From: Blastocladiella emersonii ATCC 22665
Lineage: Eukaryota; Fungi; Blastocladiomycota
DNA: 64,000 nucleotides
Direction of reading: 5' to 3'
NCBI GenBank assembly: GCA_025594325.1
Contig: JANHCV010000006.1
Location: 558,001-622,000 of the forward strand
Shown here: piece after piece, positions 26,225 through 49,570 of the stretch
How the letters are laid out: the number at the start of each line of letters is the position of its first letter
Numbering within the stretch: position 1 is the first letter of the stretch
Made by a program: the position numbers and the translations under genes
Notes under the pieces: generated by a model
The model's database searches: none
Told to the model about the DNA's origin: nothing
The model's input: only the letters and a program-made list of their open reading frames with translations

Positions 26225-26250
26225 TGAGGTATCCTTATAAGGATACCTCA
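26225..26250. repeat. Perfect 26-bp terminal palindrome TGAGGTATCCTTA|TAAGGATACCTCA (also 49545-49570)
   Basis: Directly readable; self-complementary at all 26 positions. Confidence 0.98.
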
Positions 26251-26575
26251 GGATAGGATTAAATGGCTATAGAGGTAGATGTGGTTAGGTCTATCCCTGG
26301 GGACGCCCGTCAGAAACATCCCCAGGGATGCGCGCGCGCCCGCAGCCACGAAGTGGCGGAGGGTCCTCACGTGATAAGTCGACGCGTCTCCAAGTGTCTC
26401 GCGGCCCACGTGACGGTCATCTGATCCGCGACGCGTCTCGAAATGACTTTGCGATTATTCGATGAATTGAAATCCACGACGGGCATGGGCGATATTGGCA
26501 AACGTCTATGAATCCGTCGGCGCGGTGAGGAAATGGTGAGTCGGTTGGTGAGAGTATAGGTGAGGTCGGTGAGAG

Positions 26576-26722
26576 TGTGTCCCTGTGTCCCAGTGTCCCA
26601 GCGATTTTCACTTGTAGCTCGTATTTTGAACTGAAAACAGCATACTAACTAAGTATGTTAGTTATATTTTTCAAATTTATAAAAAAGAATATTTAGCTGG
26701 GACACTGGGACACTGGGACACA
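26576..26722. repeat. Origin-like block: 3x TGTCCC repeats, AT-rich core, 3x inverted GGGACA repeats
   Basis: Directly readable. Also in the right TIR (~49073-49219) and as a diverged internal copy at ~48765-48911. Origin function is inferred. Confidence 0.8.
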
Positions 26723-26844
26723 AGTAGGTTGATAGAGTAGACGGCCATTTGGTAGTGGGTTTCAGTCGTCATAGTCCATGCCATCTGAGAAGCGGGCGCG
26801 GCGGATTTCCAGTCACTGGGCGATCCAGCTGTGGGGCAGGGAGT

Positions 26845-27152
26845 TGTGAGTATGACGCAGTTTTTAGGGCCTCCACAAAGGAAGCTAATGGCTTACCCCG
26901 GGTGTGAGTTTGTGAGTACAGGAATCGGAACTTTTCCACCCCGCCCATAATTCGGAGACTTTTTGTCACTGACATATGTATGTTACTTTTTTCTTCCAAA
27001 TATATATCACTGAATACCTCTAAATCTCATACTCACATACTCACAAGACAAAAAACAAAGTAAAAACACTCAGGGTAACGTAAAAGTAGTGCATTTTGTG
27101 AGTACGGCCTCCACACTCACACACACTCACACACACTCACAATCTACTCACA
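26845..27152. repeat. Array of ten TGTGAGT/ACTCACA heptamers in both orientations
   Basis: TGTGAGT at 26845, 26903, 26911, 27097; ACTCACA at 27031, 27039, 27115, 27125, 27135, 27146. Confidence 0.8.
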
Positions 27153-29519
27153 ATCATTGCCGTCGTCCTCTGCAGTATTGAGTCTGTAGCTGTAGACCAC
27201 ACCAGTCACCACTGGCCGCTTGGTCCGGGCCGTCCGATCGTACTGGGTGCAACAGTCCTTGGCATGCTTGCCCATGCAGTGCTTGCAGAGGTTCATTGTG
27301 GCCTTGCCCAGTCCGCGCGCCTCCATCAGGGAGTCATTCCACTTGGTTTTGGGGTGCAGATCAAGTGCGCGGAGGAAATCAGTGTAAAGCATCGCCTGCT
27401 CCGGATCCGCTGTCACAGTCAGCGGGCAGTCATCATCAAGCAGTGCGCTCCCAATTGGATCGTTTGCCAGTTTAGCCATGACAGCGTTATCCTTGAATAC
27501 CTGCTCCATAATGTCATCGCGGAATGTGAGCCCCTGGTTCTCCTCAAGGTGCTGCACAGTGAAGTGATACGCGTCCAGGGCAAACAGCAGAATGTTCAGC
27601 AAGTACTTGTCTCGGATCTGCGCCTGGAGGAACGTGTTCTCGCGTTCGGGCTTCTTTGTAAAGTTGATAAACATGAAACGCTTGGAAACTTCGTTGAAAA
27701 CTTCGGTAATCTTGAGAACAAAGTTGGACGTTGGCAGCATATGCGCCTCAAAGGCATCAGTGACCTCGTCCCCGCCCTTTCGCGCGCTGGAAAGTCCCTT
27801 ACCCTCGACCAGGTTCTTGGCCGTCTGGAAACCAAGTTTCTCGAAAAAGTCAGCATTTACATCTGTGAGCTCCCACGCGACCTTGTTCTTCGTATACGCG
27901 ATCGTAAACTTGGTCACAGTTTCATCACTGGCCGTGGCCTGGAAGCGGTGCATCCCATGGATGTCCTGAACAAGCTTGATGGACAGAGACTTGCCCGTGC
28001 CCGACTCGCCATAGGTAAATGGCGTGATTGCCCAGTTGTCAAAGTATCCCACTGGGAACATGGTGCGGCCAAAGTACATCATCACGTACTGAATCTTGGC
28101 AAGCTCGTTGCTACCAAACTGTAGATCAAGCACGTCCTGGTAAGGGCCCAGGCTGAGCTCAGAGTACTTGTTCAGGTAATCGAAATCGAACTCGTTGTCA
28201 ATGTACGTCCACACCACTGGGTTCCCACTGCAAACGTGGTTTACAAACCACTCGTAGTTGTCCTCGATGTCCTGTAGAGAAATTGGCCCCCATTTACGGT
28301 TCTCATGCGTGCCAGTGAACAGAACCCCATTCTTGAACGCGATCAGGCTGCGGTTTTGTTTGTACTGGGGGATGTTCTTAGAACCCTGCGCCAATCGCTG
28401 TGTTACGTGGCGGCGGTACTTGCTTGCGTCCTGGTTGTAATAGTCGACAAATACGTCATCGAGAATGTAGGACACGTACTCATCCACTGTCATGTGGCGC
28501 TCAAAATAAAACGGGTTCTTTGCTGATGGCTTGTAAATGTACTCGCTGTCCTTGACATAGCCCAGGGTCTTGAACTCGTCCACGATAAACTCTGAGATCA
28601 ACTGCGTTGGTGTCTTCTCCTCCTCCTCTTCCTCGGGCTCTGGAATGGCACAGGGCGCGACAATGGGTTTCTCGGCCCACTTGATATCAAAACCCGTCTT
28701 TTCGAGCGTGTACGCACCGAGGTCGGCCATAAACTGCTCGTTGATCTGATCTGAGGCACGGACCATCATGCCGTCGTACATGAGAACCGCGACCTTGATA
28801 TCACGCGAAGAGCAAAAGTCTTTGGCGTGAAGAAGGAGCTTGCACTCGACACACTGATAGACGAACGAGAGGAATGAGCCCTGGCGATTGGGATGCTTTG
28901 GCGACGACATGGCCCACACATCCAGGTGCATCTCTTGAAACTTGGGAACCACGACGTTGTACAAAAACGCGTGGAACGCCTTGTACTCGGCGGGAAACTC
29001 CAACGGACACTTTTTGCTGAACGAGCCAGCGAAGAAATCGGTTTTGTTCATGCCCAGTCGATCAAGTACGCTGTTTCGGTTCTCAATGTACTCGTTGAGA
29101 AGAGGGTACTCGAGTCCATGGTGACGAGCCAGTTGGTGGATGATGGTTGGCGCACAGTTGTGCATGTCGATATCTTGGAGCACGCCCTCGAACAGGAACG
29201 CACGCGTTTCGCCGCAAATCTTTTGTAGCCCAGGAGTAGTAGGCGTGGTAGTAAGTCGGCCAGAGTTTGTCGTGTCTGAGAACTTGTAGATGGTCTCGAC
29301 TTCACCGCGCTTATTCATCTTGCGACGGATTGAGTTGACGATTTTCGTTTCCTTGGCCTGTTGCTTTGGGTCGGCACACGAACACTGGATCGCCTTGCTG
29401 TGTAGAGCTTCCACGGCCTTGGGGTTCACTGGCGCCATGAGGCGGACGGCATAGAGCGGGTCAAGAATCTTTGAAAGGTCCTTGACAGTCTCGGTAATCT
29501 TTGAGGCGGCGGAAGACAT
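27144..29519 (-). CDS. TVpol-like (family A polymerase-related) primase fused to an SF3/D5-like helicase
   Basis: N-terminal SGRL...GLQ...DIDMHNCAPTI and LMYDG motifs; C-terminal Walker A GESGTGKS, ARKGG and PTSNF. ATG at 29519 (MSSAASK) preferred to the ORF-track start. Confidence 0.8.
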   Translation of the reverse strand: MSSAASKITETVKDLSKILDPLYAVRLMAPVNPKAVEALHSKAIQCSCADPKQQAKETKIVNSIRRKMNKRGEVETIYKFSDTTNSGRLTTTPTTPGLQKICGETRAFLFEGVLQDIDMHNCAPTIIHQLARHHGLEYPLLNEYIENRNSVLDRLGMNKTDFFAGSFSKKCPLEFPAEYKAFHAFLYNVVVPKFQEMHLDVWAMSSPKHPNRQGSFLSFVYQCVECKLLLHAKDFCSSRDIKVAVLMYDGMMVRASDQINEQFMADLGAYTLEKTGFDIKWAEKPIVAPCAIPEPEEEEEEKTPTQLISEFIVDEFKTLGYVKDSEYIYKPSAKNPFYFERHMTVDEYVSYILDDVFVDYYNQDASKYRRHVTQRLAQGSKNIPQYKQNRSLIAFKNGVLFTGTHENRKWGPISLQDIEDNYEWFVNHVCSGNPVVWTYIDNEFDFDYLNKYSELSLGPYQDVLDLQFGSNELAKIQYVMMYFGRTMFPVGYFDNWAITPFTYGESGTGKSLSIKLVQDIHGMHRFQATASDETVTKFTIAYTKNKVAWELTDVNADFFEKLGFQTAKNLVEGKGLSSARKGGDEVTDAFEAHMLPTSNFVLKITEVFNEVSKRFMFINFTKKPERENTFLQAQIRDKYLLNILLFALDAYHFTVQHLEENQGLTFRDDIMEQVFKDNAVMAKLANDPIGSALLDDDCPLTVTADPEQAMLYTDFLRALDLHPKTKWNDSLMEARGLGKATMNLCKHCMGKHAKDCCTQYDRTARTKRPVVTGVVYSYRLNTAEDDGNDCE

Positions 29520-29638
29520 TTTGGGGATGTTCTTACTGTCCCACAAGAGGAAAAACCGGCTGCTTTTATGCGTCTGGCGCGTTTATCGATAACTCTTCAG
29601 AAATAGCTATCGATATGTCATTTGGATCGCGGGAACGT

Positions 29639-30094
29639 CTATTCCGCGTCGTCTTCCGCCGTCTCTGGCTTCTGTTTCTTTTCGAGTTTGCGCACAGATG
29701 CCTTTGCAATTGCCTTGAGCATCACATCGAGCTTTACTTTTTCCCATTCCGCGCGAATAATTTCCGCCTCGCACTCTGGAATGGAAAACTTGGCAAGAGT
29801 TCCTGCAATGTCCACGTCCAGCTTTCGAACCTTTAACTTGCCCACGAGCTCGAGGAGTGTGTTTTCGCCCCAGGAAGTGAGCGGGCACTTGGAAAGCTTG
29901 CGATTCAAAGCGAGTTCGACGATCGCCACGCGGGCAGCGAGTGCGCGGACCTTCTCAAACGCGGCACCCGCCATCCCTGGGGATATCGTTGTGATGGCTT
30001 CGCTGTCAAGCTGCAGAACGAGTTCTGGATCGAATACAGTGTTGGGGATGTCAGTGACATGGCTCAGGAAGAATCCCATCAAGTGCGAGTCCAT
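29639..30094 (-). CDS. Hypothetical viral protein (~151 aa)
   Basis: Open frame packed between the helicase and recombinase genes; no recognised motif. Confidence 0.55.
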   Translation of the reverse strand: MDSHLMGFFLSHVTDIPNTVFDPELVLQLDSEAITTISPGMAGAAFEKVRALAARVAIVELALNRKLSKCPLTSWGENTLLELVGKLKVRKLDVDIAGTLAKFSIPECEAEIIRAEWEKVKLDVMLKAIAKASVRKLEKKQKPETAEDDAE

Positions 30095-30189
30095 TAGCAA
30101 CAGGCGCGAAAACTTTTAGCGATAACGCCAAACGTATAAAACGCGGACATCCCCGCGTACCTTTTTTGCCTGCTCTGTAGTAAAGCACA

Positions 30190-31527
30190 ATGGCGTCGTT
30201 CGAGCTTCTGGTCAAGGACATCCTTGCGCAAGCCACCAAGGAGTTTATGAACGCCCTCGAGCCCCGCCTCCAAGCCATCGAGGACAAGCAAGCGACGATT
30301 CTCAGCCACATGGCCGAGACCCAGTCCAAGATTGAGCCTCGCCTGGCTGAGGTGGAGCGCGAGTTTGCTCACTTGGCCCACACCCTTGAAGGCGACAATC
30401 ACCTGTACCACGAGTGTATCCATGGTGTTAAAACCCGTCTCGACAACCTCGAGAAGGCCGTGCCCGTGCAGGCTACGAAGCGCTCGCATGACGTCATGGA
30501 ACGTGATTCGGATCAGCCCGCTGATCACCCAGCCACGCAGGACGTGGAGATGGCCGACGCGTCCGAGTCCTCGACCACCAACGAGGATCAGCAGCCCGCC
30601 GCTAAGAAGCTCAAGTTCGAGACGATCACAGCCAAGTCGATTGAGGAGTTCAAGAACGCGGACATCATCAAGGCCAACAAGGAAGTCGGGAAGCGCAGTG
30701 ATACTGATAAAGCGACGGCGAACCGCATTCTCACCAAGTTCATGGCTTCGGGCGTCTCGATGCACAACGTGGATGCTGTGAAGGCCGCCATGGTCAAGTG
30801 GGACGACAAAAAGGGAAAGAACAACCCGCCAGATGCGCTCCAGTCGGACACGGCCAAGTGGCTCAGCGTGTACTGCAACTGGAACGGCGACAATGAGCTT
30901 GCTGATCAGTACTCGAAGCCCGCCCAGGAACTTCGTAAGCAGAAGCGCGAGGCCCGCAACAAGGAGGAAGCCGGCACGCTGCCCACTCAGGCTGAGGTTC
31001 TGAAGGCGATCGACGAGAAGTTTGACTGGACGCTGGACAAGGAAGTCAGCCTCGCCAGCAAGGTCCACCAGCTGCAGCTTTACCTCCAGACTCTGACTAC
31101 GGTTCGCAGTGACCTCGCATTCCTCACTGTGGATAAGACGGACCACTTCCCGCACTACGACCCTGAGACGAAGCTCATTTACGGTCCCATTGTGATCAAG
31201 ACGGCCGGCCGCGGATACGACTTCAAGCACCGCGTTGCCGACGACCAGGCTAACATGCTCGCCAAGTTTATCAAGTACCGCCGCGACCAGGGCTTTGATT
31301 TCGTGTTTGCCGACAGCATTGATGACGCCGAGGCGCTGTGCAAGAAGTGGTGCCAAGACGTTGGCCGCAGTGGCAAGCTCGTTGGACTTGACGTTGGAGT
31401 CCAGAAGCTGCGCCGGATCAGCGCGTCTGAGAACACGAAGGCGTACAACGAGATCAAGGCTCGCGCCCATGCCATGGGTCATTCCGTGGGCGTTCACGTC
31501 GACACGTACATGGTCGGCAAGAACTGA
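30190..31527 (+). CDS. Tyrosine recombinase family protein (resembles the PLV/virophage OLV11-type) with N-terminal coiled coil
   Basis: Candidate catalytic residues in order: TVR(S)DL, IKTA, KLRRISAS, MGHS...TY. R-to-H spacing 23 and H-to-Y spacing 9, as in YR enzymes. Confidence 0.7.
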   Translation: MASFELLVKDILAQATKEFMNALEPRLQAIEDKQATILSHMAETQSKIEPRLAEVEREFAHLAHTLEGDNHLYHECIHGVKTRLDNLEKAVPVQATKRSHDVMERDSDQPADHPATQDVEMADASESSTTNEDQQPAAKKLKFETITAKSIEEFKNADIIKANKEVGKRSDTDKATANRILTKFMASGVSMHNVDAVKAAMVKWDDKKGKNNPPDALQSDTAKWLSVYCNWNGDNELADQYSKPAQELRKQKREARNKEEAGTLPTQAEVLKAIDEKFDWTLDKEVSLASKVHQLQLYLQTLTTVRSDLAFLTVDKTDHFPHYDPETKLIYGPIVIKTAGRGYDFKHRVADDQANMLAKFIKYRRDQGFDFVFADSIDDAEALCKKWCQDVGRSGKLVGLDVGVQKLRRISASENTKAYNEIKARAHAMGHSVGVHVDTYMVGKN

Positions 31528-31551
31528 TGGATATTTCTCCTTGTTAATATA

Positions 31552-32661
31552 ATGTATCCGCACGAAGAACCACTTACGGATGCTCAATCAGAGTATTTGA
31601 GCAACCTGTACTATAAAAAGGGCCACGTTGGCGTCGGCATCAGGCGATTATTTGATATCATCACCGCGGAAAATACAGGGCAGCACATCTACCGAGCCCA
31701 ACTCGAAAAATGGCTTGGAGAGCAATCAGTGTGGCAGCAATATAAACAGCCCAAGTACAAGCACCGCGACATTCGTGTGATCTCGTCCGTTAGTCCCGGC
31801 CGCAACTTCCAGATGGACTCGATTATCATGGGCGAAGCAAAGCACTTTAACGGTTACACTGCAATTCTCGTCGCTGTCGACCTTGCCACGCGTAAAGTCT
31901 ATCTCCGACCCGTAAAGAAACGCGAGGCGGCCAACGTGCGGGCAATCTGGGACAAGGTCGTAGAGGAACACAATTTGAATCCCGCTACGATCCAGACGGA
32001 TAACGGGACAGAGTTTGCAACCATTGTGGCCGGGACCACTGTGAAGCACATTAAAGGCAAACCCGGAGTGCCCCAAGGCCAGGGAGTTGCAGAACGAATG
32101 AATCGTACAATCAAGTCAATGCTCATCCCGTGGATGTCGATTCAAGGCAACAACGACTGGCCGAAACACCTCAAGGTAATCGAGGACGTAATCAACAAGT
32201 CCAAGAGTCGTGGGACGGGTAAAGCGCCGAACGCCTACGACAACATCCCCAGGGATGTCGCCAAGACAGAGCTCAAAGCCATCCGTGCCGCTCGGGGCAA
32301 ACCAGAGGGTGATCCACTGAGCGCGTTGCTGAAAGTCGGCCAGCTCGTTCGCGTGCGCATTCCGTACAAGACCCAGTTAGGGTCCAAGGGAAAGCCGCTA
32401 TGGTCGAGTACATTGCATCAAGTCACCAAAGTCCGCAAGGGTTCGGGGGTGAGTAATCCGAGCTATAAAGTCGCCGGTCGCGTCGGGTTTTACTCTCGAA
32501 CTGATCTCCAGCCCGTTTCAGTATCACGTGAGCCGCCGGGACGCGTTGCGCCACAGCGACCAGCACCACAGACGCGCACTAAGCAGCCAATCGAGCCACG
32601 CAAGCCGCCGGAACGTGATCGACGCGAACCCGGTCGATTCAGGGATACGGTGCGCCACTGA
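31552..32661 (+). CDS. Retroviral-type (rve, DDE) integrase
   Basis: FQMDSI (D), IQTDNGTEF (D), GVAERMNRTIK (E); C-terminal KVGQLVRV...YKV SH3/KOW-like segment. Confidence 0.93.
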   Translation: MYPHEEPLTDAQSEYLSNLYYKKGHVGVGIRRLFDIITAENTGQHIYRAQLEKWLGEQSVWQQYKQPKYKHRDIRVISSVSPGRNFQMDSIIMGEAKHFNGYTAILVAVDLATRKVYLRPVKKREAANVRAIWDKVVEEHNLNPATIQTDNGTEFATIVAGTTVKHIKGKPGVPQGQGVAERMNRTIKSMLIPWMSIQGNNDWPKHLKVIEDVINKSKSRGTGKAPNAYDNIPRDVAKTELKAIRAARGKPEGDPLSALLKVGQLVRVRIPYKTQLGSKGKPLWSSTLHQVTKVRKGSGVSNPSYKVAGRVGFYSRTDLQPVSVSREPPGRVAPQRPAPQTRTKQPIEPRKPPERDRREPGRFRDTVRH

Positions 32662-32662
32662 A

Positions 32663-35476
32663 TCAGCGCATAAAGAAGAGGTCAAGAGTGACGTGAACGG
32701 ATTGGGTCATGGAAACGGTGGAAGACCACGTAAACCCGTACTGCTTTCCGGCTTCAAGGTACACTGTAGCACTGCCTCCCATGTACTGATCTGACGCGAA
32801 CTTACAGAGAGCTCGTGCCAGCAGTCCAATGTAGTCCTTACCCGCTACCGTCGAGTCGGTGGCATTATACAGCGAGTAAGTCGCGATGTGCTCCGTGACC
32901 GTACTTCCCTGCGTGTACCAGCCCTGACTGCGTAGTGCGTACCATCCCGTTGCGCTGACAGTGAAACAGCCGTTGGTTGCTCCAAGACCCAGGAACCCGG
33001 GACTTGTCGAGTTAACGATCGCCGCGCCTTGACTGTTTGCGCCCGTGATGACCTGGGATTGTCCGGATAAAAACGACAAACTCGCCGAGTTGATGAAAAC
33101 CTGTCCCCACCGATTTGTAGCCATGAGATTATCGACGTACGCTTTATTCGCGGCATCTGTGCCCGCCACTGGAGCAAGGTCGAGTGTGAGTTGGCCAGTG
33201 AACCGACCAGTGCCGTTGACTCGAAGTTTTTCTGTTCCAAGGGTCGCTGATCCGATGACCACGTTCCCACCGCCAGCTGCCAGGGATACGCCGCCCGTCG
33301 TTGCGGATGCGAGTTCGAGATTCCCTGCGGCAGTACATGCGAGATTGTTCTTGATGACGCCAGCTTGTTTAAAGTCGACGTACGTCAGCGTGTTTACCGC
33401 ACTGTCAAAGACCATATTCGCGCTCGTAAAGTTTCGGACCAGAATGTTGGGCACGGACAGTTGTTTATTCACTCCAAGTCCGCCGTTAATCGTGATCGCA
33501 CCAGATGAAGTCGATGTGCTATCCGTCGTATTCGTAAACGCAAACGTCGCGCCAAGTCCAAGTGCGGATTGAGGCACTGTGCCTGTTAGTGCGGATGCGC
33601 TCACGGATGTCACTTTTGAGGAAATATCGGGAAGACGGGCAATGTCGATGGTTCCTGCGAGTTTCGTAGCGTCAATTCCTGTGGCCAGTTTGAGATTCCC
33701 GATAGAACCGTCCGCGATACGTGCCACGTCCAGAGTTCCAGTGAGCTTTGTAGCGGAAACGTCCGCGACTTTGATGTCCGAGACAGCACCGCTTGCAAGC
33801 TGGCTATTTCCAATGGATCCGGCCGAGACTTTGGCGCCATCAATACCCATTGCAAGTTTGAGATTGCCAATCGAACCGTCCGCAATTCGTGCAACATCGA
33901 GTGTGCCAGTGAGCTTGGAAGCCGAAACGTCCGCGACCTTGATGTCCGAGACAGCACCGCTTGCGAGTTGGGCATTTCCAATAGATCCGGCCGTGACTTT
34001 GGCGCCATCAATTCCCGTTGCGAGTTTGAGATTGCCAATCGAACCGTCAGCAATGCGTGCAACATCGAGTGTACCTGTCAGCTTTGCGGCAGAAACGTCC
34101 GCGACCTTGATGTCCGAGACAGCACCGCTTGCGAGTTGGGCATTGCCAATAGATCCGGCCGTGACTTTGGCGCCATCAATTCCCGTTGCGAGTTTGAGAT
34201 TGCCAATCGAACCGTCAGCAATGCGTGCAACATCGAGTGTACCTGTCAGCTTTGCGGCAGAAACGTCCGCGACCTTGATGTCCGAGACAGCACCGCTTGC
34301 GAGTTGGACATTGCCAATAGATCCGGCCGTGACTTTGGCGCCGTCGATTCCCGTTGCAAGTTTGGCGTTCGAAACAGCCAAGTCAGCGAGTGCTGATGTA
34401 CCTACTGAACCCGCAACGAGCTTTCCACCAGAAACACTCACAAGTTTGGCATCCGAAACAGATGCATCAACAAGTGCAAGGCCGGACAGAGAACCAACTT
34501 TGTTTGAAACATCAGGGAGTCGAGCCAAGTCAATGGTTCCAGTCGTAATCTTTGCAGCATCTACGGCACCGATTTGGGCATTTGTGATCTGCCCGTTCAA
34601 CTTGGTCGTTTCAAGGGAGGCAATCATCCCTGAGAATACCGTGGGGATGTTCGCAGCAGCAAGTACGCCCGAAACCTTGGATGCGGACACTCCGGCGATT
34701 TGGGAGTCGGTGATGAGTCCAGTGATGGTCGATGCAGCTGTCGATGTCGTTGCGGGAAGACACGACACCGGAACCAATCCAGTGAGTTTGCCAGCGTCAA
34801 TAGTCAAAGGGAGATTAGCCGCGGCAAGTGTACCGCCGATTCGGCCCGCGTCGATCGTGTTTGGGAGCTGACTCTGTGCAAATTGGCCCACGACCTTGGT
34901 CGCTGAAACGCTGGCAATGTTTGCGTCGGCAACGGGTTCAGCCAGCATGGCGTTTGTGATCCGCGGAGCCGTAACTTTTGTCCATGGCACACTTGTGAGT
35001 TTCTCAGGCGTGACAGATGCATCGACCAGCTTTGCCGTGGTCACTGAACCATCTTGAATCGCCGCAGACGTCACTGATCCAGCTGCAAGACCGGACTTGA
35101 CATAGATTCCCTGTGCCCCAACTCCAAGCGTCGCGTCGTCCACCTTTACCGATACGACGTTTCCAATGACATTCACACCAGGACCTGCGCCAATCACGTT
35201 TGAAAGTTTTGATTCAAGGTGGGCCTTGGTCACGGCATGCGTTGGAAGTGTGGGTGGCTCAGATAGCGTGACTTGGGAGAATCCAGGTAGGTCACTCACT
35301 GCAACGGTCTTGCCAGTAACAACGATGTTGGTCCCCGCAGCCACTCCAGAGTTGGCGTTACAGTACGCCTTTGTTGCAAGGTTTGAGACGCTGTCAATGG
35401 CCACCGGATCGGCGACCACAGTTGGAGTACCGGTACCAGGTGCGTACCCAAAGATGTTTCGCGTGTTCAAGTCCAT
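32663..35476 (-). CDS. Fibre/adhesin-like virion protein with tandem 56-aa repeats (937 aa)
   Basis: Gly/Ala/Ser/Thr-rich; DGSVTTAKL-type and DAANKAYVD motifs reminiscent of viral fibres; internal repeat array. Confidence 0.6.
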   Translation of the reverse strand: MDLNTRNIFGYAPGTGTPTVVADPVAIDSVSNLATKAYCNANSGVAAGTNIVVTGKTVAVSDLPGFSQVTLSEPPTLPTHAVTKAHLESKLSNVIGAGPGVNVIGNVVSVKVDDATLGVGAQGIYVKSGLAAGSVTSAAIQDGSVTTAKLVDASVTPEKLTSVPWTKVTAPRITNAMLAEPVADANIASVSATKVVGQFAQSQLPNTIDAGRIGGTLAAANLPLTIDAGKLTGLVPVSCLPATTSTAASTITGLITDSQIAGVSASKVSGVLAAANIPTVFSGMIASLETTKLNGQITNAQIGAVDAAKITTGTIDLARLPDVSNKVGSLSGLALVDASVSDAKLVSVSGGKLVAGSVGTSALADLAVSNAKLATGIDGAKVTAGSIGNVQLASGAVSDIKVADVSAAKLTGTLDVARIADGSIGNLKLATGIDGAKVTAGSIGNAQLASGAVSDIKVADVSAAKLTGTLDVARIADGSIGNLKLATGIDGAKVTAGSIGNAQLASGAVSDIKVADVSASKLTGTLDVARIADGSIGNLKLAMGIDGAKVSAGSIGNSQLASGAVSDIKVADVSATKLTGTLDVARIADGSIGNLKLATGIDATKLAGTIDIARLPDISSKVTSVSASALTGTVPQSALGLGATFAFTNTTDSTSTSSGAITINGGLGVNKQLSVPNILVRNFTSANMVFDSAVNTLTYVDFKQAGVIKNNLACTAAGNLELASATTGGVSLAAGGGNVVIGSATLGTEKLRVNGTGRFTGQLTLDLAPVAGTDAANKAYVDNLMATNRWGQVFINSASLSFLSGQSQVITGANSQGAAIVNSTSPGFLGLGATNGCFTVSATGWYALRSQGWYTQGSTVTEHIATYSLYNATDSTVAGKDYIGLLARALCKFASDQYMGGSATVYLEAGKQYGFTWSSTVSMTQSVHVTLDLFFMR
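33690..34360 (-). repeat. About four tandem 168-bp (56-codon) repeats inside the fibre gene
   Basis: Anchor GATCCGGCC recurs at 33816, 33984, 34152 and 34320 (period 168). Confidence 0.92.
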
Positions 35477-35591
35477 TTACACTTTGGAGAGATAAAAATG
35501 CACGACATGACCGTACGCTGACACGGGCATCCCTGGGGATGTCGCCGATCACTGCCCACGCCGCTGAATTTAAAATCGTGCGTTCAAGTAA

Positions 35592-36371
35592 ATGGCATCC
35601 ACAACTGCAAACGGCTCACTCCGCGTCCGAACGTTCTCGTCCCAGGTCATGGACCAGCGCCACCAAGACCTCAATATCCAACTTGCCAATGGAAGTGTCG
35701 ATATTGAAACTGACGCCGTACTGCGACTGCACTCAAATACCAAGGAAGACGGCGCCGTGTTTAGCATTACAGGACCGGGCAGCGAAGGAGAAACTACGCG
35801 ATTTGCAATGTCGCCATGGCGGTATCGACCAGGTGGTCCGCAGTACGCAATGGAGGCCGAAGACATGGGTAACGGCACCGTAGAGGTTTGCCAGTACGTT
35901 GCTCCGCCTGGCCGTAACGACGATCCGCCTGAAGTTGTCACGAATCTGTCATATCACGGCCTCAGTATCCTGCACAATGGCCCACCGCCAGACGAAAACG
36001 CGTTCCACGTCAAGGGCGACGTTCGCATGGACGGAACCGTGGAAGCCGATTACTTTGGTTCCCATAGCCTGCCCATCAAACGCGTTTTGCTCGATTACGA
36101 CATGACGCTGTCCGAGTCGCAGCACACTTTCGACATCACCAATATCCTCCCAACACCGGATCTGAACCACATTGTGGGATGCCAAGTGTACTTTCGCGAT
36201 ATCTACCGCCACCGCCTTCATCTCGATACTGCAGCCCATTCTGTAGAGTTTGACAAGGACGAACAGAACAGGGTCACAATGACCATTGTCAAGGACATGT
36301 CTGGGTACCAGTTCTTTGTCCGAGTGCTCTTGGACGTCTGTAAAGTGCCCGTCGGCCGCACAAGTACTTGA
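35592..36371 (+). CDS. Hypothetical viral protein (259 aa)
   Basis: Open frame beginning at TAAATG; first gene of the structural cluster. Confidence 0.7.
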   Translation: MASTTANGSLRVRTFSSQVMDQRHQDLNIQLANGSVDIETDAVLRLHSNTKEDGAVFSITGPGSEGETTRFAMSPWRYRPGGPQYAMEAEDMGNGTVEVCQYVAPPGRNDDPPEVVTNLSYHGLSILHNGPPPDENAFHVKGDVRMDGTVEADYFGSHSLPIKRVLLDYDMTLSESQHTFDITNILPTPDLNHIVGCQVYFRDIYRHRLHLDTAAHSVEFDKDEQNRVTMTIVKDMSGYQFFVRVLLDVCKVPVGRTST

Positions 36372-39637: not shown

Positions 39638-39668
39638 AGTGTACATTTTTTTTATTGCGCGACATTAA

Positions 39669-40883: not shown

Positions 40884-41185
40884 AGTTTTTTCGGGGCGAT
40901 GGTAAGCGGCAACTCGTTCAAACGCAATGTGCTACGGGATTCTTTTCGGCCGCAAAGTCAAGGAACACCATGGGAACGAGTTGTATTACTTCCCAGGGTA
41001 CACCATCCCCAAATCCCACCGTGTACATCCCCGAGACTGTCTTGCCCATCGAGATGCTGAGCGCTCCAAAGCCAGGAACGATCAAGTACACGGCGGTCCG
41101 TGGCACACGGAAGCCCGGCGAGAAATACACCGTGTACTTTGAATGAAATACCTTTCAGAATTACCTCCATGTACCTCTGAAAGAC

Positions 41186-41350: not shown

Positions 41351-41850
41351 TTACAAAGTCTTGAGAGAAAGAATTCAGTGTGCGTTCCACTCGTTTACTT
41401 TGCACATCCGTGGGGATGTCCGGTACTTGTTGTACACGTCTCCGAATCCACCAGAGACTTTCTCCTGAATAGCAAGTTTAGCCGGATCAGTGTCTTTGAG
41501 AATCGACTCTGCACCCATCAGGAACCATTGTTGGCGCTTTTGCGCGAGTGCGTGCTCGTAGTCAGCCTTCATCTGGTCGCGGGTCTTACGAAAAACCTCT
41601 TCATTTGCTACTGATATCCGTGCCAGAGCGTGGTGGTGGTGGATACAACCCAGACATTCTGTGCGAGGCTGCTGGAGCTGCCGCTGTAGATATTCATTGC
41701 GTTTAGTCAGGACTTTGAAAAGGTCAATGAAAAAGGGCTGTGCGCCGGATCTACAAACAGGGCAGAGCTTGGTAACGCGTTTCAAACAAATCTTACAAAC
41801 TTCCACGCCGCACCCTTGGCACTGCTTGAGACGGCCGGTTGGGGGCTCGC

Positions 41851-42024
41851 TGTCACGGTTCAGTGATCCGACGGCTCGGGCTGGTGGCGCGGGCTGGTGG
41901 CGCAGTCCCTCATAAGCCGAGCGTTGCCCTCGCTCTCCCTCTCTCTTGTCATTCGTGATACAATCATTCATTATCCGGCTAGTCATTCCTCGTGGCACAA
42001 GACCCTCCCCCTCGGCACCTTACA
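41851..42024 (+). repeat. 5' LTR
   Basis: TGTCACGG...CCTTACA; one mismatch seen against the 3' LTR (CAATCATTC vs CAATCCTTC). Confidence 0.97.
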
Positions 42025-42078
42025 CTTTGTATCACCGTAAAACCCCCTCCGAGCGGTGATTTCTTCCACGACGGCAAA

Positions 42079-43155
42079 ATGATAACGCCGGCACAGTTCC
42101 TCGAAAAGCTGGCGACGTTTGACGTTGCGGCCATTGTCCCCGAGTACCAGCTCGCGCCGTGGCGCGACCTGGTCATGCCGTACGAGGACAAAGCCAAGCT
42201 CGTCTTCCTCGCGCTCAACGTCGCCAGCGACTACTGGCAACTGGGCGTGTCGACCGAGGCCCGCGCGGTCGCGGCCGAGCGGCGCGCCGAGACGGCGGAG
42301 CGCCGCGCGTATGCGCTCGAGGTCGAGCTGCGGCAGACGCAGCAGAGCCAGCCGCTCAACGGTATCCTGCAGGGCGAGCTCGACAGCATCCAGGTCAGCA
42401 GCGCGCGCGGGCCGGGCGTGGGCGTTGATGGCTTCACGCCGGCCGCGATGCACGCGCTGATGCGCATGAATTCGGTTGACGGCGTCAACTTCAAGGTCAA
42501 GAGCGCCATCACGCAGTACGAGAGCATCCTCCAGCTCACGTTCAACGTCCCGGAGAAGTTCAAGATTGCGCACTTCCACGGCAAGCTGACGGGCAAGGTG
42601 CTCGAGGCCGTGGAGCTGGCGATGGCCGGGTCCAAGTTTGAGGACTACGGCTCGTTCAACGCCTACATCTCCCTCGTCAAGTCAACGCAGCCGGCCGAGA
42701 AGTCGGAGACCGAGTACGCGCACGAGCTCAAGAACCTCAAGTACGTGCGCGGCGCCATGCCGGCGCGCGATTTCGTCTCCAAGTTCCGCCAGACCGCGTC
42801 CGGTGCAGGCTACCGCGCGCTCAGCGAGCTGGCGATGCAGTTCTACCTGGTGGTCACGGCCGGCAACTCGCCGCTGGCCGCGGACGTGGCCTTCGCCTCG
42901 CTGCGCAAGGGCTACCGTTTCGACAAGATGGTCGAGCACTTCCTGGTGCACGAGGGCGGGGCGACGGGCGTCGCGGCCGAGCTCGTCCCGGACCCGGACG
43001 CCATGGACGTTGGCGCGATTCGGCAGCGGGCGGCGGCGCACCAGGGCCGCGCCCTCACCGACATCAAGTGCTACAACTGCAAGGGCTACGGCCACAAGGC
43101 GGCTGATTGCCCGTCGCCCCCGCGCTCGTCGTCGGGAAACGCCAGTCGGGCGTAG
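42079..43155 (+). CDS. gag: Gag with CCHC zinc knuckle
   Basis: CYNCKGYGHKAADC knuckle at the C-terminus; start codon uncertain (first ATG after the LTR used). Confidence 0.85.
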   Translation: MITPAQFLEKLATFDVAAIVPEYQLAPWRDLVMPYEDKAKLVFLALNVASDYWQLGVSTEARAVAAERRAETAERRAYALEVELRQTQQSQPLNGILQGELDSIQVSSARGPGVGVDGFTPAAMHALMRMNSVDGVNFKVKSAITQYESILQLTFNVPEKFKIAHFHGKLTGKVLEAVELAMAGSKFEDYGSFNAYISLVKSTQPAEKSETEYAHELKNLKYVRGAMPARDFVSKFRQTASGAGYRALSELAMQFYLVVTAGNSPLAADVAFASLRKGYRFDKMVEHFLVHEGGATGVAAELVPDPDAMDVGAIRQRAAAHQGRALTDIKCYNCKGYGHKAADCPSPPRSSSGNASRA

Positions 43156-46100
43156 CGGAGCAGGCCGCGACGTCCTCGAAGCCAAAACCTGCGGATTTGG
43201 GTGGTACAACGGCGATGGCCACGGCGGCCGCCGCCGCGGATAAGATGTCGGTGCCCGCCGACAAGAAGAAAAAAATGAACAAAAAGAAGAAACAAAACAT
43301 GAATGATAAGAAGACTAATGGAAAATCTGTTGCTGCGTACTTTGGTGCACTTGTGCGTCTAGAGATGGCGCAGGACCACCTGCACCTCGGCGGGCTCCTC
43401 GCGCATCCAGGGCTCCGCACGGCGCCGATCCCGACGTTCATGATGCTCGACACGGGCGCGCCGGTTAACCTGATCAGCCGCAGGGTGGCCGAGCAGGCCG
43501 GGCTCGTGCCGAAGCGCCTAGCGCGTCGCATCGACCTCCGCGGTGTCGTCGGTTCCGCGCCGGGCCAGCGCTAGTACATCTCGCATTACGTGCACGCGGC
43601 CGTGTCCGTCACGTCGCCCGAGTTCCTGCACGCGGCGGTCGCGGGATCCCAAACCGTGTTCGCGGACGGCGTCGTGCCTCCCGGCGACGCGTCCAAGCAG
43701 AAGCGCGTGGTGGGAGACGCGGGTCGCGCCATCGACATTCCGTGCCTTCATTGCTCGGTCGCGCGCTTCCTCGTCGTCGACTCTCCCGCGTTTCCGGTGA
43801 TCATGGGACTCGAATGGATGGTCGCGAACGGCGCGAAGCCGGATCCGCGCTCGGCCACGGTCGCGATTGACGGCGCGTGCACTGGTCGCTGCGGGTGCCC
43901 GCCCGCCCAGCGCGTCACGGTGGCCACGGTCGCACCGCGCGTCGACCTCGACCCGCTCGCGTGGGACGAGGCACACGGCCCGCCCGAGGCGCCAGATGAC
44001 GCGGCGCCGAAGCGCGTGCTGCCCGCCAAGTACCTCAAGTGGGCGCACGTCTTCGATGCCGCCGCGGCGTCCGCGCTCCCGCCGCACCGACCGTACGACT
44101 GCGAGATCGAGCTCGTCGAGGGCGCCAAGGTGCCGTTCCTGCCCGTCTACGCCCTGTCGCAGCCCGAACTCGAGGAGCTGCGCAAGACCATCGACGAGAA
44201 CCTCGCGCGCGGCTTCATCCGCCCATCGCGGTCGCCAGCCGGCGCGCCGATCATGTTCGTGCCCAAGAAGGACGGGTCGCGCCGCATGTGTGTGGACTAC
44301 CGCCGCCTCAACGCGCTGACGGTCAAGAACCGCTACGCGCTGCCGCTCATCGCGGAGCTCATGAACCAAGTGCAGGGCGCGCGCATCTTCACCAAGTTCG
44401 ACCTGCGCGGCGCGTACAACCTGGTCCGCATCCGCGAGGGCGACGAGTGGAAGACGGCGTTCCGCACGCGCTACGGACATTATGAATGGATGGTGATGCC
44501 GTTCGGGCTGACCAACGCGCCGGCCGCGTTCCAGGCGTTTGTCAACGACGTGTTCCGCGACCTGCTCGACCGCCGCGGCGTTCTCGTGTACCTGGACGAC
44601 ATCCTCATCTTCAGCGAGGACCCCGAAGAGCACACGGCGCTCGTCAAGGAGGTGCTGCAGCGGCTCGCCGACAACAAGCTGTACGTCAAGCTCGAGAAGT
44701 GCGAATTCGACGTGACGCGCGTCGAGTACCTCGGCCACATCCTGACCACCGAGGGCGTCGAGATGGACCCGGCCAAGGTCCGCGCCGTGACCGAGTGGCC
44801 CGCGCCACGGACGGTCAAGGAGGTGCAGGCGTTCCTGGGCCTCGCCAACTACTACCGCCGCTTCATCCCCGAGTTCTCGGAACTGACCATCCCGCTCACC
44901 CGTCTTACGCAGAAGGACACGCCGTGGCGGTGGGGCGACACCGAGGCGGCGGCCTTTGCGGCCATCAAGACGCGGTTCGCGTCCGACCAGTTCCTCGCGC
45001 ACCCCGACCCCTCAAAACAGTTCATTGTCGAGGCCGACGCGTCCAACTTCGCCATTGGGTGCGTCCTGTCGCAGGTCGACAACGAGGGCACGCTGCGGCC
45101 GGTCGCGTTCCACTCGCGCGCGCTCAAGGCGGCGGAGCTGAATTATCCCATCTTGGATAAGGAGCTGCTCGCCATCAAGGTCGCGTTCGAGATCTGGCGC
45201 CACCACCTCGAGGGCGCGCAGCACCCGGTCGAGGTGTACACGGACCACAAGAACCTCGAGCACTTTCGCACCATGACGGTCGAGTCGCAGCGGCACGCGC
45301 GGTGGGCACTGTTCCTCGAGCGGGTTTCGTTCCGGTTCACGTACCGGCCCGGCGCAATCAACGGGCGCGCCGACGCGCTGTCGCGCCGCGCCGACTACGA
45401 GCTGTTTGACAACCCGATGCTCGGCCGCGCTGTCGTTCCCGCGTCGGCGCTCACGGTGGCCGCCACGGCCGCGGCCAGCGCGCCGCTCGTCGCGGGCACG
45501 CAGGGCGACGACGTGCTCGCCGCGATTCGGGACGGCCTGGCGGAGGACGAGCTCGCGCAGTCGATGCAGCGGAACCCGGGCAAGCACCCGTCGCTCACCA
45601 TGGACCTCGACGGCTTCGTTTGGCGAGACGACCGGCTGTACGTACCGTCGGGCGTCGCGCGCACCCGGGTGATCGAGGAGGCGCACGCGACGCGTGTAGC
45701 CGGTCATTTCGGCGTCCAGCGCACCATCGAGAATCGCGCTCGTACTGGTGGCCCGGGATGCGCAAGGTGATCGAGCGGTTCGTCAAGTCGTGCCTCACCT
45801 GCGCGCGGGCCAAGGTGCCGCGCCACCGGCCTGACGGCGAGCTGCAGCCGCTGCCCACGCCGCCGCGGCCATGGTCGTCGATCTCCATGGACTTCATCAC
45901 GGACCTGCCGCGCAGCAAGGGTCACACCTGCATCATGGTCGTCGTCGATCGGTTCTCCAAGATGACGCACTTCATCCCGCTCGCCGCGCTCCCGACGGCC
46001 GCCACGACCGCCGACGCCTTCATCGAGCACGTGGTGCGGCCGCACGGGCTGCCCGACGACATCGTCTCGGACCGCGGGTCGCAGTTCACGTCGCGGTTCT

Positions 46101-46963
46101 GGTCGGCCATGTGCGAGTCGCTTGAGATCAAGGCCAAGCTCTCGACGGCGTACCACCCGCAGACCGACGGGCAGACCGAGCGCATGAACCAGACCCTCGA
46201 GGTGTACCTGCGCATGTTCGCCAACGAGGACCAGTCGAACTGGGCCGAGCTGCTGCGGTACGCCGAGATGGCCATCAACAACACGGTCAACGAGTCAACG
46301 GGCATGTCGCCGTTCAAGGCCAACTACGCGTTTGACCCGCGGCTCTCGGCCGCGCCAGTTCGGTCGGATCGGGTCCCGTCAGCCGCCGCGCTGGCCGAGC
46401 GCATTGCCGACGTCCAGGGCAAGCTGCGCGAGAAGGTCGAGCGCGCCAAGGAGCTGTACAAGAAGCACGCTGACCGCCGCCGCCGCGAGGGCCCCGACTA
46501 CAAGGTCGGCGACATGGTGCTGCTGAGCACCAAGAACCTGCGCGTCAACGTGCCCAAGGCCAAGCTCGGGCCCAAGTACACGGAGCCGCTCAAGATCGTG
46601 CGCCTCATCCAGAAATCGGCCGTCGAGCTCGAGCTGCCGCCGACCATGGCGCGCGTCCATCCCGTGTTCCACGTCTCGCTCATCAAGCCGATCGACGAGC
46701 ACGACGAGGAGGCGTTCCCGGGCCGCGCGCTGCCGCCGCCAACGCCGTACGCCGTCAACGGGCACGAGGAGTGGACGGTCGAGGCGATCCGCGACGCGCG
46801 CAAGGTCGGCCGCAGCGTCGAGTACCTGCTCAAGTGGCACGGCTGCCCCAAGGACGACAACACCTGGGAGCCGTACGCGAACCTCAAGCACCTCGAGCTG
46901 CTCGCCGAGTTCCACGCGCAGAACCCGTCAAAACCCGACCCGCGGAGGGGGAAGGGGAGATAG
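43134..46963 (+). pseudogene. pol: Pol (protease, RT, RNase H, integrase, chromodomain) with two lesions
   Basis: LDTGA, YLDDILI, EADAS, SISMDFI/SDRGSQF/GQTERMN and EYLLKWHG...TWEP motifs; in-frame TAG at 43572-43574 and a frameshift near 45735-45745. Confidence 0.9.
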
Positions 46964-47137
46964 TGTCACGGTTCAGTGATCCGACGGCTCGGGCTGGTGG
47001 CGCGGGCTGGTGGCGCAGTCCCTCATAAGCCGAGCGTTGCCCTCGCTCTCCCTCTCTCTTGTCATTCGTGATACAATCCTTCATTATCCGGCTAGTCATT
47101 CCTCGTGGCACAAGACCCTCCCCCTCGGCACCTTACA
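46964..47137 (+). repeat. 3' LTR
   Basis: Direct repeat of 41851-42024, preceded by PPT GGAGGGGGAAGGGGAGATAG. Confidence 0.97.
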
Positions 47138-47252
47138 CTCGCTCGAACAGGTCGCGCACTTTGTTTTGGAATCTTCCATTTACAGAACGACAAGTAAAGA
47201 AGAACTGCTTGAATGCGTTTGGCGGTTTAAATACACAGCGCGTGATCACAGT

Positions 47253-47528
47253 ATGGAGACCCTGGACTCGCCCTGTAACAGCTGTGCATGCCAAGTCGAC
47301 GTATTTGATCTACACGCATTCTGTGAATCTTGCGGAGAGCCCATTTGCTGGGCGTGCCTTTATGAGTATGAAGAGTCAATGAGTGGACTTGTGGATGGCT
47401 ATCGCGTAGAAGAGCATTTGGATGACGTGCCTTGTTTGACTTGTATATTTTCTGGAAAGGAGACGCGGGTAGGGAAGCCGAGTGACATTACTCTTCCGGG
47501 ATGTAGAATCGGTGACCTTGAGCGTTGA
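47253..47528 (+). CDS. Small Cys-rich zinc-finger protein (91 aa, four CxxC)
   Basis: METLDSPCNSC...CESC-x4-CWAC...CLTC; divergent from the RING-like gene. The upstream part of the ORF-track call is LTR sequence. Confidence 0.6.
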   Translation: METLDSPCNSCACQVDVFDLHAFCESCGEPICWACLYEYEESMSGLVDGYRVEEHLDDVPCLTCIFSGKETRVGKPSDITLPGCRIGDLER

Positions 47529-47973
47529 GGGCGCGAGCAGCGGCGTGGCGTGCGACTAAGGCTTCTTCGCGGGTTTTGTACGAACCAATGTGTCTTTGAC
47601 GGCCATCTGTCCAGATCATTGCTTGCCATTTACCGTTTCGACGCTGTGTGACTCCAGTCGTAGTGCTTCGCCATTGACTGTTTTGTTGGGCCGAGACGAT
47701 TTCCAAGTTCGCAATCCGATTGTCATCCCGTTTGTGATTAATGTGATTCACTTGTTCTCCTGGAAGTAGTTCGCGGCCAAGGTGGACAGTCATGATAATG
47801 CGATGAACGCTTTGCTTCCGACCTTCGATCAAAACCTGGAGGTACCCTTTGGTATTTTTACTCAACCCAGTCTCTTTAAGCAAGTTGTCCTTCATTCGAA
47901 TGTATATCCGCCCATTCTGAACATCAACAAACCGTTTGCGGAATTCCTTCAACACGATATCTGGCGAACTCAT
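47488..47973 (-). CDS. HNH endonuclease with AP2-like DNA-binding domain
   Basis: VHRII...QVNHINHKRDDNRIANLE (HNH) then GVTQRRNGKWQAMI...HIGSYKTREEA (AP2-like). Confidence 0.88.
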   Translation of the reverse strand: MSSPDIVLKEFRKRFVDVQNGRIYIRMKDNLLKETGLSKNTKGYLQVLIEGRKQSVHRIIMTVHLGRELLPGEQVNHINHKRDDNRIANLEIVSAQQNSQWRSTTTGVTQRRNGKWQAMIWTDGRQRHIGSYKTREEALVARHAAARALNAQGHRFYIPEE

Positions 47974-48215
47974 TATTCTTAGAGTTTCGCGGCACTAAAT
48001 TTGCCAAACGTGACTCGTCAAACGCGATCGCAACATGGACGTAAAGTAGCAATGGGGACTCAGCATCCAGAACGGGGTGGCCAGTCCCGCCCTTTGGACT
48101 GTCGCCGCGCTCTACAATCCATTCCTGTGGTGGCCAGTCACAAGAACGAACCAGAGAACGCGGCGACGGCGTCATTGTTGTTTGATTACACAAATACGCA
48201 AGCAAAATCTCTTTC

Positions 48216-48328
48216 CACACAGCACGCCAAATCGTAAACGCACAAGTCCCAAAAAACTCGTCAGCCGCACACAGCACGCCAAATCGTAAACGCACAAGTC
48301 CCAAAAAACTCGTCAAACCACACAGCAC
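48216..48328. repeat. Tandem ~52-bp repeat (two full copies plus the start of a third)
   Basis: CACACAGCACGCCAAATCGTAAACGCACAAGTCCCAAAAAACTCGTCA at 48216 and 48268; CACACAGCAC again at 48319. Confidence 0.9.
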
Positions 48329-48746
48329 CAAACAAAGGGAGGGCCAGATCCAAGGCATAGTTCGCGACTCCATGCAATGAACCTGGCCAAACCAGTGCAG
48401 AAACTTTTACATGATGGTGCACCACCTATGATCAAGCATCTGCAAAGGGCGAGGAGGGAGTGATGACCGAAGCCATGAGAGAGCGTGGACGAGGCGGGCC
48501 GTACTTGGTTCTTATAGGGGTCTTTCGTTGCAGCAACAAGGCAGTTACTCAACCCGCTATAGGGACGCAAGCAGTGAATCTCCACGCCAAGCCTGCTCAA
48601 TCAAGGCCTTGGTAATGAGCTTGGCAAGCGGTGGGGCGAGGTCGATTATGAACCGCTTGGTCATCGATAATTACATGGGGGTGGCTGGTGATCACGCGTG
48701 GCTTGGTGGACCGACTTTCACTTCACTTCACTTCCACTTTCGCCGC

Positions 48747-48953
48747 CTACTCTATCAACCTACTTGTGTCCCTGTGTCCCTGTGTCCCAGCTAAATATTC
48801 TTTTCTATAAATTTAAGAAAAAAAAGTAACATACTTAGTATGTATGTTGTTTTCAGTTCAAAATACGAGCTACAAGTGAAAGGTGCTGGGACACTGGGAC
48901 ACTGGGACACAGATCGAACCGACCCTCATCGATACTCTCACTGCCTGACTCAC
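48747..48953. repeat. Diverged internal duplicate of the TIR subterminal block
   Basis: Direct repeat of ~49055-49260 (offset 308 bp) with substitutions; TGTCCC/GGGACA triplets retained. Confidence 0.9.
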
Positions 48954-48958
48954 TCGGT

Positions 48959-49570
48959 CCCACAGCTGGATCGCCCAGTGACCTGGAAATCCGCCGCGCC
49001 CGCTTCTCAGATGGCATGGACTATGACGACTGAAACCCACTACCAAATGGCCGTCTACTCTATCAACCTACTTGTGTCCCAGTGTCCCAGTGTCCCAGCT
49101 AAATATTCTTTTTTATAAATTTGAAAAATATAACTAACATACTTAGTTAGTATGCTGTTTTCAGTTCAAAATACGAGCTACAAGTGAAAATCGCTGGGAC
49201 ACTGGGACACAGGGACACACTCTCACCGACCTCACCTATACTCTCACCAACCGACTCACCATTTCCTCACCGCGCCGACGGATTCATAGACGTTTGCCAA
49301 TATCGCCCATGCCCGTCGTGGATTTCAATTCATCGAATAATCGCAAAGTCATTTCGAGACGCGTCGCGGATCAGATGACCGTCACGTGGGCCGCGAGACA
49401 CTTGGAGACGCGTCGACTTATCACGTGAGGACCCTCCGCCACTTCGTGGCTGCGGGCGCGCGCGCATCCCTGGGGATGTTTCTGACGGGCGTCCCCAGGG
49501 ATAGACCTAACCACATCTACCTCTATAGCCATTTAATCCTATCCTGAGGTATCCTTATAAGGATACCTCA
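48959..49570 (-). repeat. Right terminal inverted repeat (~612 bp)
   Basis: Reverse complement of 26225-26835; ends ...GGATACCTCA and is followed by the TSD GTACG. Confidence 0.97.

Follow-up and report, generated by a model that had tools for sequence, protein, structure and literature searches.

We analysed a 64,000-nucleotide stretch of the genome of the zoosporic fungus Blastocladiella emersonii ATCC 22665 (assembly GCA_025594325.1, contig JANHCV010000006.1, positions 558,001 to 622,000), referred to here as the window, and found that the element at 26225-49570 is a real, young, complete and multi-copy provirus of the Polinton-like virus (PLV) kind, a kind that is already known. Its identity as a PLV provirus seems to us nearly certain. 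The explanation that we consider probable as a whole is that of a PLV which was inserted by an rve integrase, replicates by means of fold-back ends, forms double-jelly-roll particles and exists in several near-identical copies. The initial annotation, made from the sequence alone, had proposed an endogenous PLV, and the fold of the capsid protein together with the evidence for an ATPase, an rve integrase and a superfamily 3 (SF3) helicase agreed with it. The zoosporic fungal host suspected at that stage was likewise supported by near-identical proteins in B. emersonii and by the closest full-length capsids, which are those of Allomyces. B. emersonii is a culturable model organism with wall-less zoospores.

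The 404-aa product of the gene at 39669-40883 (plus strand) had no Pfam match and, in a single-sequence search, no PDB match; 140 relatives, most of them unnamed, were found when cluster representatives were searched at an E of 0.001 or lower. An alignment of 105 capsid sequences gave a profile match to PBCV-1 MCPv4 (E 1.6e-4), and the AlphaFold2 model built with the 105 sequences had a predicted local distance difference test score (pLDDT) of 92.2 and a predicted template modelling score (pTM) of 0.89. When this model was compared by Foldseek with BFVD, the best match had an E of 4.8e-22 and the named rows were nearly all capsid proteins, and in the PDB it matched an iridovirus capsid chain (9.6e-16) and a PBCV-1 capsid chain (1e-15). 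Structural alignment with VIA-align to the PBCV-1 chain gave a Z of 29.3 and a root-mean-square deviation of 3.2 A over 352 residues, with lower Z values for the virophages Sputnik (22.5) and mavirus (21.0). As modelled, the product is a double jelly-roll major capsid protein; the initial annotation had named in advance this fold at 39669-40883 as one of two points on which its proposal would stand or fall, and this is the fold that the model adopts.

The remaining genes of the morphogenesis module were assigned with differing strength. The A32-like packaging ATPase (37664-38425, plus strand) matched Pox_A32 above the cut-off (3.4e-9). The 397-aa protein encoded at 38444-39637 (plus strand), which has an N-terminal extension, is likely the minor capsid protein (penton), as suggested by the Atlas embedding features of its residues 130-397 (0.97 with the clusters of DUF5901 and of Sputnik V18/19, 209-212 of 256 features); it had no Pfam match and no PDB sequence match. 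Other single proteins compared with PDB sequences likewise gave no match. The likely fibre, 937 aa long (32663-35476, minus strand), has a 168-bp (56-aa) unit repeated 4.1 times and showed weak matches to Phage_Tail_Tip (1.7e-6) and to a PHROG tail fibre (4.9e-6). Neither a protease nor a chitinase was found in the Pfam scan of the main open reading frames (ORFs) of the element.

The borders that had been proposed, with terminal inverted repeats (TIRs) of ~611 bp, TG..CA ends and a 5-bp target site duplication (TSD), were all recovered by alignment. The left TIR (26225-26835, 611 bp, plus strand) and the right TIR (48959-49570, minus strand) gave a local alignment of 611 columns that is free of mismatches and contains a single 1-nt indel, and their outer 588 nt (26225-26812 and 48983-49570) were 100% complementary; the lack of substitutions bears out the suggestion of a recent insertion. 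When lengths of 3-11 were tried for the TSD, the 5-mer GTACG, present in the plus strand at 26220-26224 and 49571-49575, was the only one duplicated, and it lies outside the TIRs. The termini of the element are TG...CA, and each TIR ends in a perfect palindrome of 26 bp (26225-26250 on the left, 49545-49570 on the right), the left one of which would form an 11-bp stem with a 4-nt loop if single-stranded. The centre of the palindrome is a symmetric 6 bp at both ends, and in the window the palindrome is restricted to the two termini (2 occurrences with as many as 3 mismatches tolerated; 0 in 100 shuffles). The element is 23,346 bp long, and 18,054 bp after removal of a nested retrotransposon, as in the earlier estimate of ~18.05 kb. 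Its two viral parts have a GC content of 53% and 50%, versus 64-69% in the host flanks, and the insertion looks intergenic, with the nearest long ORFs at 25014-25604 and 49653-52076.

Four DNA sequencing runs, all of one sample, contain the stretch, and the contigs of three runs were compared with it. Single-depth contigs extend from the flanks into the element for 30 nt on the left and 29 nt on the right with no differences; these lengths are below the 31-letter bar for bridging, and the contigs may be the window's own source. Inside the left TIR lies a 170-bp module (26576-26745) in which three inverted 8-bp repeats stand on each side of an AT-rich core, with further copies at 49050-49219 and, just inside the right TIR, at 48742-48911 (91%). 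This module near the ends is a candidate replication origin. We also considered it as a miniature inverted-repeat transposable element, which was ruled out by the shared flanks and the lack of a TSD. A fainter AT-rich echo of the module is seen at 26975-27016, and in the non-coding right arm a 52-bp tandem duplication (48215-48328) is polymorphic among contigs. A contig joint that skips 1378 nt (26807-28186), with 36 letters on its short side, has substantial depth in runs X1 and X2 and may stem from a derivative with a deletion or from a misplaced edge of the TIR.

The 791-aa replicase (27144-29519, minus strand) ends in an SF3 (D5/P4-like) helicase, as indicated by matches of its C-terminus to DUF5906 (2.2e-5) and to a PHROG primase (9.6e-13). 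Its N-terminus contains PolA-like (TVpol) motifs in the correct order, and on this motif order it is likely of the TVpol/PolA type. To the right of the replicase, the 445-aa product of 30190-31527 (plus strand) is likely a tyrosine recombinase (YR), with R306, K337, R409, H431 and Y440 as the predicted catalytic residues. Two observations point to this: residues 130-445 matched Preplasmiviricota clusters in the Atlas at 0.97, and the R409-H431-Y440 spacing of 22 and 9 equals that of lambda Int (R311-H333-Y342), with 33 and 9 in N15 TelN. The motifs of both proteins are given by their customary PolA and YR names. Several results speak against these two assignments. A profile made from 8 phage PolA proteins, without one of the 9 polymerase loci considered (unannotated), scored -0.2 bits on the replicase, which 40 of 1000 shuffles matched or exceeded (not significant), and hhalign of the N-terminus to PolA gave a probability of 0.1%. 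For the YR, Phage_integrase was found on 16% of the members of one Atlas cluster only, no recombinase match was obtained in Pfam, PHROG or NCBIfam, and the alignment to lambda Int was not significant (243 of 1000 shuffles). The PolA profile and hhalign nevertheless both pointed to the same RL..P.LQ stretch of the replicase, which precedes the two aspartate motifs. Searches of phages by tblastn with the YR and the replicase N-terminus returned only matches with E of ~1 or worse, and a single-sequence AlphaFold2 model of the YR (pLDDT 39) was discarded.

The integrase gene is better defined. The 369-aa product of 31552-32661 (plus strand) is a stand-alone rve/DDE integrase, unfused to a reverse transcriptase, that matched Pfam rve above the cut-off (3.7e-9); it also scored 1.2e-21 with the IS481 model, below the cut-off of that model. 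The possibility that it is debris of a retrotransposon was rejected, as it is a separate ORF located 9 kb from the long terminal repeat (LTR) element in a region of 54-56% GC, with no reverse transcriptase. Near the right end an HNH endonuclease is encoded (47488-47973, minus strand; HNH_3 1.1e-11, PHROG 1.6e-31). No family B DNA polymerase of the protein-primed kind (pPolB) was found in the main ORFs scanned, and no unassigned ORF of PolB size is left.

The element apparently belongs to a multi-copy family of near-identical copies. Five B. emersonii proteins at five loci, on contigs that all differ in length, were 92-100% identical to the YR. The window copy may be among them, and another of the five departs from the rest in its N-terminus. 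Three members of the same cluster, each of 54 aa, were excluded as unrelated (the one of the three that was aligned gave 31%). A stretch of the capsid protein was matched at 100% identity by an annotated B. emersonii protein of 53 aa. The median depth inside the element was 5.8 times that of the left flank in run X1 and 4.7 times in run X3. A contig joining 41845 to 47138 was present in all three runs, at 2.8-3.5 times the flank depth in X1 and X3, and since it bypasses the retrotransposon, retrotransposon-free copies must exist; most copies are without it. Among the listed coding differences to other copies, 28 of 51 were synonymous as compared with 28% expected (P 6.5e-5), and 12 of the 19 listed in named viral genes were synonymous. 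This excess suggests that selection, and not decay, accompanied the divergence of the copies. Some caution is required, as depth is not equal to copy number and its GC bias is visible, the right-flank depth in X1 is much lower (8-19 versus 37), all runs come from one sample that is possibly the window's source, and the synonymous test covers the listed differences only (40 of 179, plus 11 viral-ORF rows among 40 of 144) and assumes a 4:1 transition weight; all of these weigh against the picture given here. In one contig comparison, the ORF at 35592-36371 held 21 of the 40 listed differences, so that its rate of variation among copies may be higher.

The nearest full-length capsids are those of Allomyces macrogynus and A. 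javanicus (54% identity), and in the capsid tree these two and the element formed one clade with an SH-like approximate likelihood ratio test (SH-aLRT) value of 99; the tree was a quick one with long branches, for which 60 of 143 rows were used, namely those of 380-500 aa within the first 80 ids. Outside Allomyces, a 418-aa capsid from public-run contigs (P0005) came closest, at 41-42% identity. Scans of viral and metagenome contigs, which reach close relatives only, found no relative of the capsid, the YR, the ATPase or the palindrome. B. emersonii also has a second, larger PLV-like family (P0016 and P0144-P0157), whose 26-member cluster (15 of them listed) includes 406-aa capsids in a different clade, 22-24% identical to the capsid of the element, as well as 303-aa penton-like proteins with locus tags adjoining those of the capsids. 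The alignment of our penton to the 303-aa protein was not significant (145 of 1000 shuffles as good). A 101-aa ORF of the element (37221-37526, plus strand), itself with an amphipathic start, resembles the amphipathic N-terminus of the same 303-aa protein (14 of 2000 shuffles as good) and is a possible candidate for a membrane-penetration protein or peptide that would be separate here and fused in the second family.

How the element may move and replicate can be proposed from these features. As TG..CA ends and a 5-bp TSD mark a DDE integrase, the rve likely inserted the element, and we consider it very probable that the enzyme was the element's own; it would join the CA-3' ends to host DNA and so create the 5-bp duplication. 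In cryptophyte PLVs, TSDs accompany rve, and those that encode a YR are mostly without TSDs (PMC12220804). With no pPolB, the ends need another solution for replication. By folding back, the 26-bp ends could take the place of protein priming and either prime or cap replication; hairpin priming has been proposed for the same end arrangement in Halocafeteria elements (10.64898/2026.07.28.741278). The predicted PolA-type polymerase fused to the SF3 helicase would copy the genome. If a fold-back end or a head-to-head junction were nicked at a CA that lies 13 nt beyond its axis, and were then joined to the target, a full palindrome would be left on each integrated end, which is what is observed. 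That the palindromes serve replication or resolution we hold somewhat more probable than that they do not. Since each palindrome is fully symmetric, the YR could recombine both ends, by which the genome would be released or replicated junctions resolved; that the YR acts on the palindromes rather than elsewhere is a tentative suggestion. The genome would finally be packaged into double-jelly-roll particles. The window copy was afterwards hit by a host Ty3/Gypsy element, which split one accessory gene. Whether the family can still form particles is somewhat doubtful. Two points count against this scheme: the Halocafeteria authors allow that the palindromes could be annealing accidents (10.64898/2026.07.28.741278), and no particle, free form or junction has been seen.

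Other ways of life were weighed against this one. A virophage-like cycle, in which the rve inserts into the fungal genome and the YR into that of a giant virus, with particles formed only during replication of the latter (e.g. a mycodnavirus), is the chief rival as regards the YR, though we consider it rather unlikely. Such a dual role has been proposed for virophages of Cafeteria and Halocafeteria with both rve and YR (PMC8547959; 10.64898/2026.07.28.741278). Of 58 isolates of Allomyces, the sister genus, 30 were PCR-positive for giant viruses, with polinton-like integrases in five (PMC13533422); as giant viruses are common there, insertion by the YR into their genomes is plausible. That paper, however, never names Blastocladiella, and the fibre suggests independent entry while being silent on replication.

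Somewhat less probable is that the element is a virus-derived self-synthesising transposon confined to the genome, or a recently silenced burst, whose capsid genes are intact because it is young. The several near-identical copies, the lack of close capsid or ATPase relatives among viral or metagenome contigs and the retrotransposon in the window copy would all fit. On the other side, those contig scans detect close relatives only, the frames of capsid, penton, ATPase and fibre are open with 96% of 27144-40883 coding, the capsid is conserved over its full length with Allomyces (54%), and the differences between copies lean synonymous. We think it a little less likely still that this is a small dsDNA virus of fungi that can still be induced, from a PLV lineage specific to Blastocladiomycota. 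Its retrotransposon-free copies would be excised by the YR at the 26-bp palindromes and replicate by hairpin ends with no protein priming; the virus would form double-jelly-roll particles, either independently or by parasitising mycodnaviruses, and use the rve for its return to the genome.

The YR-family protein could also be a telomere resolvase, the free genome being linear and hairpin-closed and the integrated palindromes being opened hairpins. In its favour are the perfect palindrome that each end carries, with its symmetric 6-bp centre, and the lack of pPolB; the cuts that protelomerases make in palindromes lie 6 bp apart (PMC3558466), and the protein has K, not H, three residues before R409, like N15 TelN (KDSR). 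We nevertheless find this improbable, as the R-to-H spacing is 22, like lambda Int, and 33 in TelN, the alignment to TelN, the one reference protein used, was not significant (359 of 1000 shuffles), and no telomere-resolvase Pfam match was obtained. Finally, that the borders are an artefact of collapsed repeats in the assembly is a negligible prospect, since, although several family copies exist and none of the listed contigs runs through the whole element, the TSD is exact within unique flanks, single-depth flank contigs enter both ends without differences and the window copy bears its own substitutions.

Compared with known systems, the element behaves as a PLV in the features tested: double jelly-roll capsid, A32-like ATPase, minor capsid (by Atlas only), TIRs and rve integrase. 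At 18,054 bp with 611-bp TIRs it falls within the 15-30 kb of PLV genomes (PMC10120064). Its relatives in A. macrogynus, a host of the same phylum, are the capsid AMAG_06710 (54% identical) and the ATPase AMAG_18713 (64%). An integrated PLV of A. macrogynus with capsid, ATPase and helicase genes was reported by Bellas & Sommaruga in 2021 (PMC7805220), so the undescribed lineage of the initial annotation was an overstatement. That report devotes two sentences to it, with no borders or genome, whereas our element is complete, bordered and multi-copy; AMAG_06710 as the capsid meant there is unconfirmed, the name Allomyces being absent from the supplement. The Spizellomyces punctatus PLV group is likewise integrated in a zoosporic fungus (PMC7805220). 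Among cryptophyte PLVs, cluster C1 with TVpol-S3H and YR resembles the element in its PLV capsid module and, as far as the likely assignments of the element hold, in its PolA-helicase and YR (PMC12220804); unlike the C1 and Spizellomyces PLVs compared, the element has no chitinase detectable by Pfam.

The novelty was also overstated for a second reason, as rve together with YR, and terminal palindromes beside TSDs, are known in stramenopile virophages; each oddity of the element thus has a virophage precedent. Virophages and PLV subtype 4 of Halocafeteria seosinensis, a stramenopile, share with it palindromes at the TIR ends beside TSDs, non-pPolB replicases and rve, with pictured palindromes of 52 nt versus 26 bp here, and rve+YR are described there for some virophages "but not PLVs" (10.64898/2026.07.28.741278), whereas the element is a PLV with an rve and a likely YR. 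Both enzymes also occur in the mid-GC endogenous mavirus-like elements of Cafeteria burkhardae, which have a virophage capsid, a protease and a nested Ngaro, in contrast to a 404-aa capsid, a Ty3/Gypsy and no protease found (PMC8547959). In a survey of ~8300 elements, rve and YR co-occurred in 12, the rve always lying in a nested retrotransposon (PMC12220804); here it is a separate viral gene. According to another preprint, PolA replicases are tied to YR and DDE enzymes to pPolB, which makes an rve without pPolB beside a YR atypical. With Mavericks/Polintons (Polintoviricetes) the element shares rve, TG..CA ends, long TIRs, a TSD, ATPase and capsids, and differs in lacking a detected pPolB or protease, in its 5-bp TSD and in the extra, likely YR. 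Identity as a Maverick was ruled out by the lack of a pPolB among the ORFs scanned, and as a virophage by the type of capsid and the lack of any match to virophage capsid or protease families. Of the features of mriyaviruses and NCLDV-like PLVs (VLTF2/3, HUH nuclease, Mriya48), VLTF2/3 and the HUH nuclease had no Pfam match; several small ORFs have no family.

The retrotransposon nested in the window copy (41851-47137, plus strand, 5,287 bp) is a Ty3/Gypsy LTR element, which we take to be of the chromovirus type on account of its chromodomain. It contains the gag zinc knuckle, protease, reverse transcriptase, RNase H, integrase and chromodomain, its 174-nt LTRs differ at 1 site, and it has its own TSD, CTCGC. 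Its interior depth, ~6-30 times that of the left flank in X1 and X3 and higher at the LTR, identifies it as a member of a high-copy host family. The statement that all genes had open frames held for the named ones but not here: the pol frame is disrupted near 43572 and 45733 (with a stop and a gap of 4 nt relative to the contigs), and a small minus-strand Cys-rich (RING-like) gene is interrupted by the retrotransposon, with its 3' piece at 41375-41845 (zf-RING_4 only at E 0.8) and its 5' piece at 47143-47178. The other ORFs of the element are those of 151 aa (29639-30094, minus strand), 259 aa (35592-36371, adjoining the fibre), 83 aa (basic, 36398-36649), 176 aa (K/E/S-rich, 36675-37205) and 71 aa (40927-41142), all without a family and the last four in the plus strand, and a 91-aa Cys-rich ORF (47253-47528, plus strand; FYVE E 0.036).

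Elsewhere in the window, an 11-kb block at 5900-17000 with 57% GC consists of about four diverged tandem units of 2.6-3.0 kb, 63-82% alike; its minus-strand ORFs are 300-500 aa long, and the five that were scanned had no Pfam match under E 0.1. The host genes include an SPX-RING protein (112-2583), a fibrillarin-like gene recognised by eye (18057-19475), a major facilitator superfamily transporter (21365-22927) and a Polo kinase (53848-57120).

A 2023 paper still had it that fungi were without any known dsDNA virus (PMC10640383); since then, giant viruses have been reported from zoosporic fungi (PMC13533422). Fungi were left out of a large survey of endogenous PLVs (PMC10120064), and a 2026 preprint found PLV ATPases in numerous chytrid genomes, with supplements that may list this species. 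We found no published link of Blastocladiella with Polintons in a literature search that was thin on subscription papers. What is new here is that a zoosporic fungus amenable to culture harbours a complete and young family of proviruses, and that a PLV has a stand-alone rve beside a likely YR, a combination not found in two surveys. A young, bordered, multi-copy provirus in a culturable host with wall-less zoospores permits a direct test of whether a fungus releases a small DNA virus, and of whether that virus depends on mycodnaviruses or protects against them. One short sequence and two enzymes offer a handle on how the ends are copied in PLVs that have no pPolB and on why some elements retain two integrases.

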